A stretch of DNA of 64,000 nucleotides. Source: a phage. The first letter of the stretch is position 1. Each line of letters opens with the position of its first letter. Location: NCBI GenBank assembly GCA_015370545.1, contig GCA_015370545.1_3932.1, one strand, 5' to 3'. The notes under the pieces were generated by a model. The model saw only the letters and a list, made by a program, of their open reading frames with translations. It ran no database searches and was not told the origin of the DNA. This document shows, one piece after another, positions 31,951-52,901 of this stretch. A program made the position numbers and the translations under genes.

Positions 31951-32001
31951 ACAGATACTATAAGGGGACTGTAAAGGTTCCCTTTTTATTTTGGAGATAA
32001 C

Positions 32002-32788: not shown

Positions 32789-32803
32789 GAGAGAGAGAAA
32801 ACT

Positions 32804-33268
32804 ATGATTTTTTGCAATTCCCAGAAGCATGTAATAGAGATTCTATATAAGGAGTTTGGTACAGAGAACACCTTTGACTCAAATGAAGCAATTGATGTAC
32901 TAAGAGAAAAAAGCCTCTTTATAAGAGGTCAATCAATTAACAATGCTCGTGGCTACCTAACAGTGCTAAGGCAATCCGGTGTACTGATAACTGTAGGCCA
33001 AATAAAAAGTAAGGGGAGACTAAGCATCAACCAGATTAACCGAGCTTTTATGGAGAAACACCCACAACTATCACGAATGTTAGATGATGGACATGGGGAG
33101 GTAAAGAGCCTTCAAAAAACAACCTCGACCGATGTTAATTCAGTTGACATACAACCAGATGTTAGGTATTTTATTGAGGATGTGATGTTTAAAACAATGG
33201 ATGAAGCAGTTGAACACTGTAAAAAACATCTGATTAAAGTTAAACGTGCAAAGATTGTTTGGGAATAA
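32804..33268 (+). CDS. hypothetical protein, tandem paralogue A
   Basis: 154 aa; shares EILYKEFGT..FDSNEAI...PQLSR(M/L)LD...(V/A)KYFI(E/D)...AVE(H/Y)CKK..IK.KR.KI.WE with next ORF. Confidence 0.5.
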   Translation: MIFCNSQKHVIEILYKEFGTENTFDSNEAIDVLREKSLFIRGQSINNARGYLTVLRQSGVLITVGQIKSKGRLSINQINRAFMEKHPQLSRMLDDGHGEVKSLQKTTSTDVNSVDIQPDVRYFIEDVMFKTMDEAVEHCKKHLIKVKRAKIVWE

Positions 33269-33301
33269 TACTTCAAAAACTTCTATTGAGAGAAAAAGAA
33301 C

Positions 33302-33754
33302 ATGTTAAGTTCATTTTACATAGCACTGACTGAGATTCTATATAAAGAATTTGGTACAGATACCATCTTTGACTCTAATGAGGCTATAAAAGCTCTCAGA
33401 AGTGGAAGTGACTGCCTAAGTAAAAGCCCTATAGCAAACATTCGGTATTACTTGACCACAATGCGTAAAATGGGGCTACTGATGGCTGTAAGTCAGGGAA
33501 CAAAAGACTGTGCTTCTCTATACCTAAACCAACTAAATAAAATGATGATAGAGAGCGACCCACAACTATCAAGACTACTTGATAGTGTTGACAAAACTAA
33601 TAGGAATACAAGAACATCAAAACCAAAAGGTGAGTTCCTCCCTGATGCAAAATACTTTATTGATGAACTAATGTTTGATACCATAGAAGATGCAGTTGAG
33701 TATTGCAAAAAGAATATTATTAAGTTGAAAAGAAAGAAAATTATTTGGGAATAA
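33302..33754 (+). CDS. hypothetical protein, tandem paralogue B
   Basis: 150 aa; paralogue of 32804..33268. Confidence 0.5.
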   Translation: MLSSFYIALTEILYKEFGTDTIFDSNEAIKALRSGSDCLSKSPIANIRYYLTTMRKMGLLMAVSQGTKDCASLYLNQLNKMMIESDPQLSRLLDSVDKTNRNTRTSKPKGEFLPDAKYFIDELMFDTIEDAVEYCKKNIIKLKRKKIIWE

Positions 33755-34662
33755 AACTACCATTATCGAGAGAGAAAACTATGAAAACATCTATCCGTGT
33801 TACAGTTCATTCACCAACTAAAGGAACTCATGAAGAAGAGTTTAACATCATCCAATTTCCTTCTGGTGAGATTGGTGGACACTTTTCGCCAGAGTTTGTT
33901 GATTTCACTGCTTATGCAGCATCATCCATCAACAATGTGATTATGATTGTAAAAGGTTATGATAAGGATACATTGTTTGCTGTGGCACTTGCTAAAGAAG
34001 CAATTGATGATTTAATTCCTCATGGTTATGCTTTAAAGACTGTCATCTTTTACTACTTACCAAATGCACGTTATGACCGTCACATGTTTAAAGGCGACGC
34101 AGCAGCTTTAAAGGTTTTTGCTAAACAGGTAAATGCAATGGGATTTGGTGCAGTCTGTGCAGTTGACCCTCACAGCTATGTACCAGATAACCTGTTTAAC
34201 TGCTTCCAGAGTATTCCTCAAAAGGAAATTGCAGTCCACTATGCAAATGACCCACTGATTGATTACTTAGTAGCCCCAGATGCAGGTGCTGCTAAGAAGA
34301 TTGCAGAGACTGCTAAAGAGGTGGATAAACCATATATCACAATGTCTAAAGTACGCAACCTTAAGACTGGTGAAATTACTGGTATGCGAATCCTTGATGA
34401 TGTTGATTTGACAGATAAAACCGTCATGATTCTGGATGATATCTGTGATGGTGGTCGAACCTTCATAGAAGCAGCTAAACATCTTCGTGAAGCAGGTGCA
34501 AAACGTGTGGAACTCTATGTAACACACGGTATCTTCTCTAAAGATGTTGAAAACCTTCTTGACAATGGCATTGACCACATCTACACTACAAACTCTTTAG
34601 GGGAAGCTAAAGACCGTGGCTTAACACATTATGGTCAAGTTACTGTAGCAAACCTTGATTGA
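33745..34662 (+). CDS. ribose-phosphate pyrophosphokinase-like (PRPP synthetase fold) protein
   Basis: 305 aa; type I PRTase-type PRPP-binding loop VMILDDICDGGRT; divergent N-terminus; immediately upstream of NAMPT-like gene. Confidence 0.75.
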   Translation: MGIKLPLSREKTMKTSIRVTVHSPTKGTHEEEFNIIQFPSGEIGGHFSPEFVDFTAYAASSINNVIMIVKGYDKDTLFAVALAKEAIDDLIPHGYALKTVIFYYLPNARYDRHMFKGDAAALKVFAKQVNAMGFGAVCAVDPHSYVPDNLFNCFQSIPQKEIAVHYANDPLIDYLVAPDAGAAKKIAETAKEVDKPYITMSKVRNLKTGEITGMRILDDVDLTDKTVMILDDICDGGRTFIEAAKHLREAGAKRVELYVTHGIFSKDVENLLDNGIDHIYTTNSLGEAKDRGLTHYGQVTVANLD

Positions 34663-34671
34663 AACTTTATA

Positions 34672-34692
34672 GGGGCTTAAAAGCCCCATTTT
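34672..34692 (+). terminator. hairpin/partial terminator between PRS-like and NAMPT-like genes
   Basis: GGGGCTT-AAA-AGCCCC followed by ATTTT. Confidence 0.55.
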
Positions 34693-34707
34693 GAGAGAGA
34701 TTAAAAG

Positions 34708-36489
34708 ATGACTAAATCACTTTATGCAGTACCAGCAGGTTTAAACGCAGATGCTTACAAATCTGGTCATGTTTACCAGTACCCTAGTGCAACAGAGTAC
34801 TTGATGTTCAACCTGACACCACGTAGTGACAAATGGTTTAACAGCCCCTTAGCAATTGATGGTGTAGTAGCTTTTGGTATTCAACGTTTCGTTAAAGATT
34901 ACTTGATAGACCACTGGAACGCCACTTTCTTTGAACGTGATAAAAAAGAAGCCATTGATGAAATCTTAGAAGTCATGAATGGTGTTCTGGGTAAAGATGC
35001 TATCGGTCGAGAGCATTGGGAAGCACTTCACGACTTAGGTTATCTACCAGTTGAAGTATACGCTGTAGAAGAAGGTACAGTTGTTCCTATGCGTGTACCA
35101 ATGATTGTCTTCCAGAACACTGTTTCAGGTTTCCATTGGGTAGCGGGATATCTGGAAGATGCTTTCTCTGCTGAGATTTGGAAGGCTTGTACCATTGCAA
35201 CTATTGCATTGCATTATAAACGCATCTGTAAGAAGTGGGCTGACCTTACTTGCGACAATGACTTACATTTACCTTATCAGTGCCATGACTTTGCTATGCG
35301 TGGTATGTCCGGCTTTACTGATGACGCATTTAACGCTGTAGGCCACTTAACCAGCTTTAAAGGGACTGATAGCTTCCCTGCTGTATATACAGCTAAACGC
35401 ATCTACGGACAGTCTTACCAAGTCTCTGATATTGGTGGTTCTGTACCAGCCACTGAACACTCTGTAATGTGTGCAAACATTGCTTGGGAAGGTGGTAATG
35501 AGTTGGTTGAAGAAGAAAGACGCTTTAAAGGTGAGTTACAAACCTTCCGTCGTTTCTTAACAGAAACTTACCCAACGGGTATTGCAAGTGTTGTTTCAGA
35601 TACTTATAACTTCTGGAGAACTGTGTCAGAAATCTTACCAGCACTCCGTAAAGAAATTATGGAACGTGATGGCAAACTGGTAATTCGTCCTGACTCTGGA
35701 GACCCTGTACACATTGTCACAGGTTATAAAACAATCCACTTAGAGTGTGCTAAAAAGGCTTATTACGAGCACCTAAGTAAGCTGGAAGCCAGTGACGCAA
35801 TGCTGAATGCTGTTCTGAACATGAAGCTTGAAAACATCAGCTATGGTATTGCTGGATGGCTACTGTCAGAAGGCTACGAAATGGTTGTTGACAGAGAAGA
35901 CTTTGAAGTTGCTGATACAGTGCTGTTGAAGAACGCTTATATGGTTGGCTCTGCAAACGTTGTAACACGCCCTGTAGCAGAGATTGATGGAGCTATTAAG
36001 ACCTTGTATAACATCTTTGGAGGAACTATCAACTCTAAAGGTTTTAAGGTACTGGATGAGCACATTGGACTTATCTATGGTGACTCTATCACGTTGGAAC
36101 GTGCAAACGAAATCCTGAAGCGTCTGTATGAAATGGGGTTTGCAAGCTCTAACGTGGTGTTTGGTGTAGGCTCTTACACTTACCAGTACATGACTCGTGA
36201 CACCTTTGCATTTGCTGTCAAAGCAACTCTTGCAAGCATTGGTGGCAAAGAGATTATGCTTGCAAAAGACCCTAAAACAGATAGTGGTGTTAAGAAATCT
36301 GCCTTTGGTGGTGTAGCACCTATGTGGGATGGTGAGAATTTGAAAGCTGTAGATGGCTACGGATTCCAGAGCTTTGCAGATGCACTTGACCACCCAGCTT
36401 GTGCTTTACGTTTAGTCTTTAGCAACTCTGAGCAGTTCGGTTACACATCTCTTGGTGATATTCGAAATAATATTGACAAGCAGCTTTAA
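34708..36489 (+). CDS. nicotinamide phosphoribosyltransferase (NAMPT) family protein
   Basis: 593 aa; HLTSFKGTDS and GLIYGDSITLERANEIL...VVFGVGSYTYQ correspond to conserved NAMPT active-site regions. Confidence 0.85.
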   Translation: MTKSLYAVPAGLNADAYKSGHVYQYPSATEYLMFNLTPRSDKWFNSPLAIDGVVAFGIQRFVKDYLIDHWNATFFERDKKEAIDEILEVMNGVLGKDAIGREHWEALHDLGYLPVEVYAVEEGTVVPMRVPMIVFQNTVSGFHWVAGYLEDAFSAEIWKACTIATIALHYKRICKKWADLTCDNDLHLPYQCHDFAMRGMSGFTDDAFNAVGHLTSFKGTDSFPAVYTAKRIYGQSYQVSDIGGSVPATEHSVMCANIAWEGGNELVEEERRFKGELQTFRRFLTETYPTGIASVVSDTYNFWRTVSEILPALRKEIMERDGKLVIRPDSGDPVHIVTGYKTIHLECAKKAYYEHLSKLEASDAMLNAVLNMKLENISYGIAGWLLSEGYEMVVDREDFEVADTVLLKNAYMVGSANVVTRPVAEIDGAIKTLYNIFGGTINSKGFKVLDEHIGLIYGDSITLERANEILKRLYEMGFASSNVVFGVGSYTYQYMTRDTFAFAVKATLASIGGKEIMLAKDPKTDSGVKKSAFGGVAPMWDGENLKAVDGYGFQSFADALDHPACALRLVFSNSEQFGYTSLGDIRNNIDKQL

Positions 36490-36504
36490 AAGTATATGAT
36501 AAGA

Positions 36505-36525
36505 GGCTCCTACGGGAGCCTTTTT
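36505..36525 (+). terminator. rho-independent terminator
   Basis: GGCTCC-TACG-GGAGCC followed by TTTTT. Confidence 0.65.
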
Positions 36526-44269: not shown

Positions 44270-45055
44270 ATGGGTATTGTAAAAATAATTAATGGTGATA
44301 TCTTTGCCGCATTTGATAAAGGTAAGTTTGACATCATCGGTCACGGTTGCAACTGTATGAATTTAATGAGTGCAGGTATCGCTGACAAGATTTCTAAACT
44401 TTACCCAAAAGCATATGAGACCGATACAGAAGTTTATCTGTATGCAGGTGGTATAGGACACAAACCCTGTGAAAATTTACTAGGTAATTTCTCTGTAGCA
44501 CGTTTAAAACAAGGTCGTATAGCTAATCTTTACACTCAGCTTAAGACTGGTAAAGATGCCCGATACAGTGCTTTAGAGTCATCTTTGAAACAGCTTAACA
44601 GATACTGTGAAGTTAATCAGTTGAAGAAAGTTGGGTTACCTATGATTGGTGCAGGTATCGGTGGACTTGACCCTCAAGCCGTTACCGTTATCATTAATCA
44701 GGTGATGAAGAGTGTAGATGTGTATCTGTATGTCTACGAAGGAGAGATGTACCACAAGTTACGCTCAGGTTGGAATAACTACTGCGAACCAGAATACTTT
44801 GCAGGTGTAGTAACGTTCACAGACAATGCAGTTACCCTCTTCAGACGAAGAAAAGGTAAGATACATCAAAGTAACCCTCCGGTTGAAAAGATGTCTCTAA
44901 GTAACGCTCTAGTTACCCACCTGTCGAAGAGCAATCACAGAATTGCAGTAACATTTGGCAGTGATGCAGACACATATATCTATGCAAGGACTGATGAAGA
45001 TATCGAGGAGATTTTCTCATCACAAGAAGTTACCTTCTTAGACGCAAAGAACTAA
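44270..45055 (+). CDS. macro-domain-like (ADP-ribose binding/processing) protein
   Basis: 261 aa; N-terminal GDIF...DIIGHGCNCMNLMSAGIA and glycine-rich VGLPMIGAGIGGLDP fit the macro-domain pattern; extra C-terminal region. Confidence 0.5.
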   Translation: MGIVKIINGDIFAAFDKGKFDIIGHGCNCMNLMSAGIADKISKLYPKAYETDTEVYLYAGGIGHKPCENLLGNFSVARLKQGRIANLYTQLKTGKDARYSALESSLKQLNRYCEVNQLKKVGLPMIGAGIGGLDPQAVTVIINQVMKSVDVYLYVYEGEMYHKLRSGWNNYCEPEYFAGVVTFTDNAVTLFRRRKGKIHQSNPPVEKMSLSNALVTHLSKSNHRIAVTFGSDADTYIYARTDEDIEEIFSSQEVTFLDAKN

Positions 45056-51299: not shown

Positions 51300-52860
51300 T
51301 CTATCGAATCCTTATACAATCCCTTTCCCTTTCCTTTCTAGAATCTTATCAGACCTTAAAAAGCAATAACTCTATAGTCTACTCTATAACCTCTTATCAA
51401 ATCAACTTAAATATAAGCCAATAACCCCAGAAAGGGGATGGCCCATTAAAACGCTCTATAAAGCTCTATAACAGCCTTATCAACCTAACTTAAGCAATCA
51501 TATTAACCCACTCTAAAAAGCCCTTTATAGAGCTTCCCAGAGCCTTAAAAGAATCTTATAAGGGTGAAAGCTTATAGGCTGGCTAGTATCTTGTGAATAA
51601 CTAAACAATCCCCTTGATAGTCACTAAAAAGCATGTTATAGGGGCTATAAAGTTACTTCAAAGTAACGTAAAAAAGGCTATAAAGTTACGTAAATGCTAG
51701 CCCCCTTAACATTTTCTTAACAATTTCTTAACAATCCCTACATAGTTATGCTTGTTAGAGACTTGTTAGCCCCTTGTTAAATCTCTGTTACAACCATGTA
51801 AAAGCCTTGTAAGAACCTTTGACATAGCCTTAAAAGCCCTGTAAAGCCCTATAAAGAGCTATCCATACAGTTGGGCTGTAGTTACTAGGGAGAGACTTAA
51901 AAGGGGCTATACAGAGCTATAGAGGGCTTTTAAGAGGTATGTTTAAAGAATCACTAAGAATCAAAGGGAACGATAAGAAAAGAGATAGTGACCATGTTAA
52001 TAGCTTGTTAAAAAGATTAAACACTTGTTAGAAACTTGTTAATTATCCCTACAAAATAACTCTTTAAAATTAACTTGTTAGCTCTTGTTAGTCATCTGTT
52101 AAGACTCTGTAAAGACTATTCAGCACTTGTTAGAAAACTGTTAAGTTCTTGTTAGTTCTGTTAAGAAACTGTTAAGACCTTTGGAGAGTTGTTAAGAGCT
52201 TGAGAGAGTTGTTAAGAGATTGTTAAGGATATTTTAAAATTCTGCAAAGTACTTGTAAGGGAGCTGTTAAGGGCTACCAAGCAGATATACATCTTCTACA
52301 GATATTTTTCAGTTCCTTCAAAGACCCTAAAAAATGACTTGATAGCCCTATTTTATAAAAATTTTAAAATTCTGAATAATTACCTAGACAGTCTTTTAAA
52401 AATACAGGTAGAAACAGGCTTATAAGATACCTTGTTAGTACCGTGTTAGACCTTGTGAGATAAGGTCTGTGAAGATATTCCTGTTAAGTTTGTTAAAACA
52501 GTCTATATAGAGGCTTAGTAGTACCTAGTGAACATCTATAGAGGGTATCATAGCTAACCTAGAGATTAAGAGGTGTATAGGGGCTTCTAAGAGGGTATAG
52601 AGAGATGGTTAAGGTGATTGTATAGGTTGTTAAGAAGGATTGTTAGAAGAGTGTTTAGAGGGCTATTTAGAAGGGTTATACAGAGGGCTATTAAGACCAC
52701 TAGATAGTTACTAAGATACTATATAGTACTATATAACTATATAGAGAGTAAGATTAAGAAGGTTGTTAAGAAGGATAGATATCTTATTCACATATGATGG
52801 TGACCCAGAGGTTGGGACAACCGATAAAATTTTATAAAAATATAAATTTCGTAAATTTTA
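51300..52860. repeat. ORF-free iteron-rich region (candidate origin or packaging/regulatory locus)
   Basis: no ORF of 60 aa or more; dozens of (C/T)TGTTA(A/G) units at about 10-11 bp spacing (densest 52010-52260); repeated TATA(A/C)AG(A/C)GCTAT and GGCTATAAAGTTAC units; ACTATATA triple near 52720. Confidence 0.6.
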
Positions 52861-52901
52861 CTCAATAAAAAGCCCCCAATTAAGGAGGCTCTTAAGATAT
52901 T

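Follow-up and report, generated by a model that had tools for sequence, protein, structure and literature searches.

The DNA analyzed here is a stretch of 64,000 nucleotides (nt) from a phage (contig GCA_015370545.1_3932.1 of GenBank assembly GCA_015370545.1), which we refer to as the window. It is a segment of the genome of a Felixounavirus, a Felix O1-like E. coli phage. We focus on two genes, adps and namat, which are adjacent and co-oriented on the plus strand with a 45-nt spacer between them. Such a gene pair defines the nicotinamide adenine dinucleotide (NAD+) reconstitution pathway 1 (NARP1), discovered in the Felixounavirus Bas63 (JohannRWettstein, MZ501086, BASEL) as genes 79-80 (Osterman et al., bioRxiv 10.1101/2024.02.11.579819). 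A megablast search with the locus matched 252 phage records, essentially all of the Felixounavirus/Ounavirinae type (Felix O1-like myoviruses), whose hosts are Escherichia, Salmonella, Shigella and Citrobacter; the top match was SP22, at 98.8%. The features of the locus are as follows.

33781..34662, plus strand: adps, ADP-ribose pyrophosphate synthetase (Prs family), 293 amino acids (open reading frame, Pfam, orthology)
34672-34687, plus strand: intergenic hairpin, GGGGCT-TAAA-AGCCCC (sequence and RNA fold)
34688-34692, plus strand: AUUUU, directly 3' of the hairpin
34693-34699, plus strand: ribosome-binding site of namat, GAGAGAG (sequence)
34708..36489, plus strand: namat, nicotinamide ADP-ribose transferase (Nampt family), 593 amino acids (open reading frame, Pfam, orthology, fold)
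36501-36524, plus strand: intrinsic-terminator-like hairpin, 10-bp stem and T-run (top-listed site of the terminator scan)

A preliminary description of this DNA, made from the letters alone, had reported adjacent PRS-like and NAMPT-like genes with their signature motifs and a hairpin between them, and all of these are present where it had placed them. The intergenic hairpin has a predicted folding energy of -13.8 kcal/mol (z = -2.9). Bas63, finno and the Mooglevirus Mordin all have the same stem (GGGGCT-NNNN-AGCCCC) but differ in the loop, and with an invariant stem no covariation could be counted in the comparison of these three phages. The terminator scan did not call this hairpin, which has only four T in its tail. 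It may act as an attenuator or an mRNA-stabilizing element, and might set the ratio of Adps to Namat. The terminator-like hairpin at 36501-36524 begins 12 nt past the namat stop codon, and a terminator is annotated at the matching site of Mordin; this hairpin is probably the 3' end of the transcription unit. Two further signals flank the genes.

31962-31984: upstream terminator-like hairpin (terminator scan)
36473-36500, plus strand: sigma-70-like promoter match, TTGACA-16-TATGAT, 11/12, the best in the region

The promoter match overlaps the last namat codons and lies just ahead of the terminator hairpin. Judged by its sequence, it may serve as the promoter of the small genes that follow and of rIIA.

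The maximal open reading frame of adps (33745..34662, plus strand) starts at TTG 33745 and encodes 305 residues. The length of 305 residues reported for the PRS-like protein thus holds for the maximal frame, but the protein itself is likely 293 residues long and starts at ATG 33781, because the TTG overlaps the preceding open reading frame (stop at 33754), GAGAGAGA at 33768-33775, a likely ribosome-binding site, precedes the ATG, and the resulting N-terminus (MKTSIRV...) agrees with the N-termini annotated for the orthologues in Bas63, wV8, SP22 and Felix O1. The frame contains VMILDDICDGGRT, and the protein matches Pribosyltran (PF00156, 9.5e-12) and Pribosyl_synth (PF14572, 5.1e-10) in Pfam and phrog_619 in PHROGs (9e-97). 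It is identical to Bas63_0079 at 231 of 293 positions (79%) over its full length and without gaps, and shares 99.7% identity with the SP22 and 98.3% with the wV8 protein. The identity is 30% to the Adps of SPbetaL1 and 25% to E. coli Prs (b1207). K190-V-R192 aligns with the catalytic K162-Q-R164 of SPbetaL1 Adps, in which K162 corresponds to K197 of B. subtilis Prs and its mutation inactivates the enzyme (bioRxiv 10.1101/2024.02.11.579819). We took the correspondence to the Prs lysine from that study, as the MAFFT register against the DKRR of E. coli Prs is off by one.

Profile scores separate this protein from cellular Prs. It passes the broad subfamily model TIGR01251 of NCBIfam (121.6 bits, cutoff 113), on which SPbetaL1 Adps scores 106, but it falls far below the cutoff of every Prs equivalog, the best score being 103.5 bits against a cutoff of 296. 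On NF002320 it scores 90.5 bits versus 532.6 for E. coli Prs, which reaches 423-533 bits on TIGR01251 and NF002320. The validated SPbetaL1 Adps is likewise far under every Prs equivalog cutoff. On sequence grounds the window Adps is assigned to the phage Adps clade, apart from cellular Prs, because it shares 79% identity with the Bas63 protein and 98-99.7% with those of wV8 and SP22, and because its NCBIfam pattern is like that of SPbetaL1 Adps. Canonical Prs was rejected as its identity, since no equivalog cutoff is reached and the N-terminal half is without a Pfam match. The best match in the PDB is the Prs structure 4twb (2e-18), to which phmmer aligns residues 23-286, and all PDB relatives are Prs. 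The divergent N-terminus had been cited in favor of a specialized role. The N-terminal half indeed matches no Pfam family at E <= 0.01, and such divergence is usual in the Adps clade, but it contains no specificity determinant known from the literature; our literature search found neither a solved Adps structure nor a published determinant of Adps specificity, and our PDB search returned Prs relatives only.

The second gene encodes a protein of the Nampt family, and both the open reading frame and Pfam agree with the 593 residues proposed earlier. It matches NAPRTase (PF04095, 8.9e-35) and NAMPT_N (PF18127, 2.3e-5) in Pfam and phrog_448 in PHROGs (1.5e-202), and contains the motifs HLTSFKGTDS and GDSITLERANEIL...FGVGSYTYQ. 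Compared with Bas63_0080, 577 of the 593 residues are identical (97%), again over the full length and without gaps. The identity is 47% to SPbetaL1 Namat and 30% to KVP40-type Nampt (PVA23 orthologue). The catalytic core is fully retained: D15, Y17, F195, R198, D221, H251, R327 and D329, whose equivalents in SPbetaL1 Namat are D13', Y15', F189, R192, D215, the catalytic His, R306 and D308 (PMC12774641). The AlphaFold2 model of the window Namat, built from a 30-sequence alignment, has a pLDDT of 93 and a pTM of 0.91. In Foldseek the model comes closest to the Namat crystal structures 9w5x/9w5w (E 6e-54, TM 0.95), with H. ducreyi NadV (HdNadV) and mammalian NAMPT ranking behind them. Comparison with canonical Prs and NadV had been proposed as a check on the two proteins; it gave an Adps far below the Prs models and a Namat model nearest to 9w5x/9w5w.

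Structures of SPbetaL1 Namat revealed what discriminates Namat from Nampt, an adenine-binding 'selectivity clamp' formed by a helix (SCH) and a variable loop (SCL) that contributes a further stacking residue (NAR 2026, PMC12774641). The SCH motif is GSXphiXphiXphiTRD in which positions 3 and 7 are aromatic (PMC12774641). The window sequence, G488-S-Y490-T-Y-Q-Y494-M-T496-R497-D498 (GSYTYQYMTRD), fits this motif; Y490 and Y494 align with F392 and Y396 of SPbetaL1, and the third phi position is Met, as in Bas63, where Asn or Val is usual. The corresponding helix of true Nampt enzymes reads GGxLLQxxDRD (GGALLQKVDRD in Xanthomonas, GGGLLQQLDRD in a KVP40-like enzyme). In the SCL, the third residue is Arg, Lys or Tyr, and with Lys or Tyr there, adenine stacking falls to the fourth residue; Bas63 is the cited example of the Lys type (PMC12774641). 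The window SCL, TPRSDK42W43F, is the same as that of Bas63 and fits the Lys-then-stacker rule, and by residue identity the pair K42/W43 qualifies for adenine stacking.

The Namat of the window also carries two insertions, located by alignment.

35479-35541, plus strand: Namat insertion, residues ~258-278
35725-35988, plus strand: Namat insertion, residues ~340-427

Together they add ~100 residues that are absent from SPbetaL1 Namat (491 residues) and from Nampt enzymes. In the AlphaFold2 model they fold confidently as a small alpha/beta subdomain (pLDDT 92-96), and they differ in length and sequence among Namat homologues. The text of the Namat structural paper does not discuss them (PMC12774641). 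The extra length had been read as a sign of a specialized role. That argument fails, as the insertions are missing from the active and crystallized SPbetaL1 Namat, so length is not diagnostic. The markers of the specialized function are the SCL/SCH clamp and the adjacency of Adps.

Taken together, adps and namat are almost certainly the NARP1 operon of a Felixounavirus. This reading is based on the presence of both genes, their orthology to those of Bas63, the retained catalytic and specificity residues known from published work, the fold, and the operon anatomy. The proposed match to the phage NAD+ reconstitution pathway is borne out by the Bas63 79-80 orthologues (97% for Namat, 79% for Adps), the gene order, the spacer and the Namat signature. 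The reactions are known from SPbetaL1 homologues, and the anti-defense phenotype and the in vivo detection of ADP-ribose pyrophosphate (ADPR-PP) from Bas63, all through the literature; by analogy, the alleles in the window presumably act like these counterparts. Deletion of the Bas63 operon lowered plating ~20-fold on SIR2-HerA cells (10.1101/2024.02.11.579819), and ADPR-PP was detected only when wild-type Bas63 and the defense system were combined (10.1101/2024.02.11.579819). Published enzyme activities cover the homologues of SPbetaL1, P. foliorum and DyoEdafos. SPbetaL1 Namat forms NAD+ from ADPR-PP and nicotinamide and favors ADPR-PP over phosphoribosyl pyrophosphate (PRPP) (10.1101/2024.02.11.579819).

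The pathway in the window would work as follows. NAD-depleting defenses (SIR2-HerA/Nezha, DSR1/2, type I Thoeris, SEFIR and similar systems) would cut NAD+ into ADP-ribose (ADPR) and nicotinamide. Adps would then move the pyrophosphate of ATP onto the free ribose of ADPR, giving ADPR-PP and AMP, in parallel to the action of Prs on ribose-5-phosphate. In a Nampt-type reaction, Namat would replace the pyrophosphate of ADPR-PP with nicotinamide and thereby form NAD+ directly, and its preference for ADPR-PP over PRPP would come from the adenine clamp (K42/W43 in the SCL, Y490/Y494 in the SCH). The net cost would be one ATP per NAD+, and the pathway would run only once the defense has made its substrates.

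The two genes could instead serve ordinary NAD salvage, in which a true Prs makes PRPP, a NadV/Nampt enzyme makes nicotinamide mononucleotide (NMN), and the host NadR or PncC/NadD completes NAD+, the purpose being nucleotide and NAD supply for replication and not anti-defense. This is how the genes are named: every deposited genome annotates a ribose-phosphate pyrophosphokinase and a nicotinamide phosphoribosyltransferase, and Pfam, PHROGs and NCBIfam give Prs/Nampt names. The neighbors, which include the nucleotide-metabolism genes nrdA/B/D/G, thymidylate synthase and DHFR, would also suit such a role, as would the NMN that Namat still makes from PRPP in vitro. However, wild-type Bas63 partly restores NAD+ also in a host lacking pncC and nadR (10.1101/2024.02.11.579819), a restoration that salvage through these host enzymes does not explain. 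SPbetaL1 Adps makes ADPR-PP from ADPR and ATP, and its Prs-type control reaction yielded no product (10.1101/2024.02.11.579819), and SPbetaL1 Namat given ADPR-PP and PRPP together made NAD+ only (10.1101/2024.02.11.579819). In the window itself, Adps lies under every Prs equivalog cutoff, Namat has the adenine clamp that is missing from true Nampt enzymes, and no NMNAT was found: a Pfam census of the window's open reading frames of at least 50 residues (64 kb of the ~87-kb genome) returned neither an NMNAT nor a Nudix domain (CTP_transf_like, NUDIX). Ordinary salvage, which the preliminary description had kept as its alternative, is therefore very improbable.

Several points weigh against the assignment to NARP1. 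Curated profile hidden Markov models do not tell Namat from Nampt: the NCBIfam equivalog NF006629 is passed alike by the window Namat, SPbetaL1 Namat and a KVP40-like Nampt. The Bas63 protein 'did not purify well' (10.1101/2024.02.11.579819), and the enzymology is that of the SPbetaL1 homologues, with 30% (Adps) and 47% (Namat) identity to the window proteins. Namat-type enzymes keep an NMN-forming activity with PRPP in vitro (10.1101/2024.02.11.579819; PMC12774641), so some contribution to ordinary salvage is possible. The NMNAT check covers 64 kb of the ~87-kb genome. In addition, the N-terminal half of the window Adps is of another allele than that of Bas63, and the activity of this wV8-type allele is a prediction from sequence. 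Pfam, PHROGs and NCBIfam, which return only generic Prs/Nampt names, were dropped as a test of membership; residue motifs and orthology were used instead.

Felixounaviruses have two types of adps allele, the wV8/SP22 type found in the window and the Bas63 type. Aligned with Bas63 at the DNA level, adps is only 64-76% identical in its 5' half (33830-34229); the low-identity stretch corresponds to the first ~450 nt of the gene, and the 3' half is about 90% identical. The Namat proteins of the window and Bas63 are 97% identical despite the divergent 5' half of adps. The Adps of Felix O1 is a chimera of both allele types, which indicates, at the sequence level, that recombination occurs inside adps.

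A gene for a Macro-domain protein lies 7.8 kb downstream of NARP1 on the same strand, and its orthologue in Bas63 is Bas63_0095, annotated 'putative phosphatase'.

44270-45055, plus strand: Macro-domain protein, 261 amino acids (PF01661, 29.5 bits against a cutoff of 22; phrog_335 'phosphatase')

This gene raises the idea of an extension of NARP1, which would not exclude the assignment above. In Vibrio phage Gary, NARP1 includes Adpp, a validated ADPR-1''-phosphate phosphatase (10.64898/2026.01.28.702374). Felixounaviruses, Bas63 included, might have a dispersed three-enzyme version of this NARP1-AP system, in which the unlinked Macro protein would turn ADPR-1''-phosphate, the product of RES-type NAD+ phosphorolysis, or another blocked ADPR into ADPR, and Adps and Namat would then convert the released ADPR to NAD+. 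The Macro domain scores above the Pfam cutoff, and the alignment of the protein with Gary Adpp spans the full length (27% identity, E 8e-13) and includes the shared motifs GH(G/Q)CNC and LP(M/L)IG(A/C)G. The shared strand with the operon and the retention of the gene in Bas63 are consistent with this idea. The published survey of Adpp considered only genes within two genes of NARP1, a radius that would have missed 44270-45055, and its table is without Escherichia or Salmonella phages (10.64898/2026.01.28.702374). On the other hand, the gene has no operon linkage to NARP1, and its family is very widespread: it occurs in 2771 phage records, and the 'phosphatase' locus Tk.4 of T4-like phages belongs to it, so that chance would be expected to bring it together with NARP1 in one genome. 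Among curated models the protein is closest to the macrodomain of the DarG antitoxin (4e-11, below cutoff), and its best PDB matches are OARD1/TARG1 (4e-5), ahead of Poa1p (0.08-0.15). The matches to DarG and OARD1/TARG1 rank best, and therefore de-ADP-ribosylation of DNA or protein is equally plausible. The C-terminal extension of ~100 residues is found in Ounavirinae-like phages only. We consider the dispersed system rather unlikely. If true, it would give resistance to RES-type NAD+ phosphorolysis (aRES).

Directly upstream of adps, an insert of ~1 kb (about 32790-33780) that is not in Bas63 contains a tandem pair of paralogous open reading frames, 47% identical to each other.

32804-33268, plus strand: paralogue 1, 154 amino acids (phrog_29478, function unknown)
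33302-33754, plus strand: paralogue 2, 150 amino acids (phrog_29478, function unknown)

The pair occurs in 16 of 50,697 phage records and in three clusters of a set of 5.8 billion proteins. In all three other genomes examined it fills the position directly upstream of adps; in Bas63 nothing occupies this slot, and in finno four small open reading frames do. The AlphaFold2 model of the paralogue, from a 4-sequence alignment, is confident for residues 1-95 only. The Foldseek matches are weak (E >= 0.015) but uniformly winged-helix regulators (PadR/MarR/SarX), and the model suggests that the N-terminal ~95 residues form a PadR/MarR-like winged helix. The variable slot could hold lineage-specific regulators or accessory anti-defense genes, an idea weaker than that of a dispersed NARP1-AP.

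The rest of the window agrees with its assignment to a Felixounavirus. The G+C content is ~38-40% throughout, and the flanking genes are the expected early and middle set of this genus. Around the operon lie genes for nucleotide metabolism (nrdA/B/D/G, glutaredoxin, thymidylate synthase, DHFR and dNMP kinase), and rIIA and rIIB are downstream of it. The window also contains replication genes (a family-A DNA polymerase, a primase-helicase and a ligase), a tRNA cluster and a region dense in repeats.

51425-52901, at the switch from plus- to minus-strand genes: repeat-dense region of ~1.5 kb, free of open reading frames (none longer than 37 amino acids)
62557-63972, plus strand: eight tRNA genes (Pro, Glu, Met, Asn, Tyr, Asp, Lys, Met; ARAGORN, six of them at the Rfam gathering score)

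The repeat-dense region lies in the lowest-GC part of the window. Its repeats are short and degenerate; they comprise TTGTTAAG/TTGTTAGA units and others resembling CTATAAAGAGC, present as direct as well as inverted copies. The region recurs across the genus, with 80-93% conservation in over 200 Felixounavirus genomes, and phage bumzen has it annotated as 'repeat_region'. A replication origin is one possible role for it, a regulatory region another.

NARP1, described in 2024 from a phage of the window's genus, is already known, and in this very lineage, because the supplementary tables of the defining paper list proteins of SP22, wV8 and Felix O1, either as Prs/Adps that have a Namat no more than 10 genes away or as 'Adps-associated' Namat (10.1101/2024.02.11.579819). 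The near-identical wV8 and SP22 orthologues are thus catalogued, and the operon in the window is no new biology. The value of the result lies in annotation. Almost all deposited Felixounavirus genomes carry the labels 'ribose-phosphate pyrophosphokinase' and 'nicotinamide/nicotinate phosphoribosyltransferase', and the pathway can be identified by a simple motif test, GS-aromatic-x-aromatic...TRD together with an adjacent Adps. Therapeutic Felix O1-like phages that carry NARP1 are predicted to escape NAD-depleting defenses of the SIR2, TIR and DSR types.

Among known systems, NARP1 of Bas63 is of the same genus as that of the window and has the same gene order, 45-nt spacer, hairpin stem, and clamp and catalytic residues. 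In both phages the operon follows the nrdG-proximal block and precedes rIIA, and a pairwise alignment gives at least 90% DNA identity over most of the region. The Bas63 locus differs in the allele of the adps 5' half, in the absence of the ~1-kb upstream insert, and in an extra small gene (0081) after namat. NARP1 of SPbetaL1 (Adps WIT26982, Namat WIT26983; 9w5w/9w5x) shares with the window the two-gene architecture, the catalytic residues and the Adps lysine. Its SCH, GSFTYQYNTRD, is of the same motif type as GSYTYQYMTRD of the window, and its SCL stacker is R40 where the window has K42/W43. In contrast to the window, the SPbetaL1 genes abut with one base (36130) in common, there is no intergenic hairpin, and Namat is without the insertions.

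NARP2 of KVP40, composed of Nampt and a bifunctional Nmnat, likewise sets a Nampt-family enzyme against NAD depletion, and the KVP40-like Nampt and the window Namat both pass NF006629. It needs Nmnat, however, uses PRPP and has the GGGLLQQLDRD helix, whereas the window has an adjacent Adps and the aromatic clamp. NARP2 was rejected for the window, in which no Nmnat was found (64 kb of the ~87-kb genome) and the Namat-type aromatic clamp is present. NARP1-AP of Gary (Adps-Adpp-Namat; bioRxiv 10.64898/2026.01.28.702374) has the core Adps and Namat in common with the window, but its Macro gene is inside the operon, unlike that of the window at 7.8 kb. RyDEP-associated NARP1 has been published as an extended variant (10.64898/2026.05.28.727677). 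A strict NARP1-AP, with Macro within two genes, and RyDEP-associated NARP1 were both rejected, as the flanking open reading frames contain neither domain: no Macro domain at E <= 0.1 is present in the six upstream or three downstream open reading frames of the operon, and no RyR domain in the operon neighbors or in the window-wide Pfam census. Canonical Prs (E. coli b1207) and the NadV/Nampt salvage enzymes belong to the same superfamilies as those of NARP1 and share their folds and their catalytic chemistry; in the published biochemistry, the NARP1 enzymes differ from them in a substrate specificity that has moved to ADPR and ADPR-PP.

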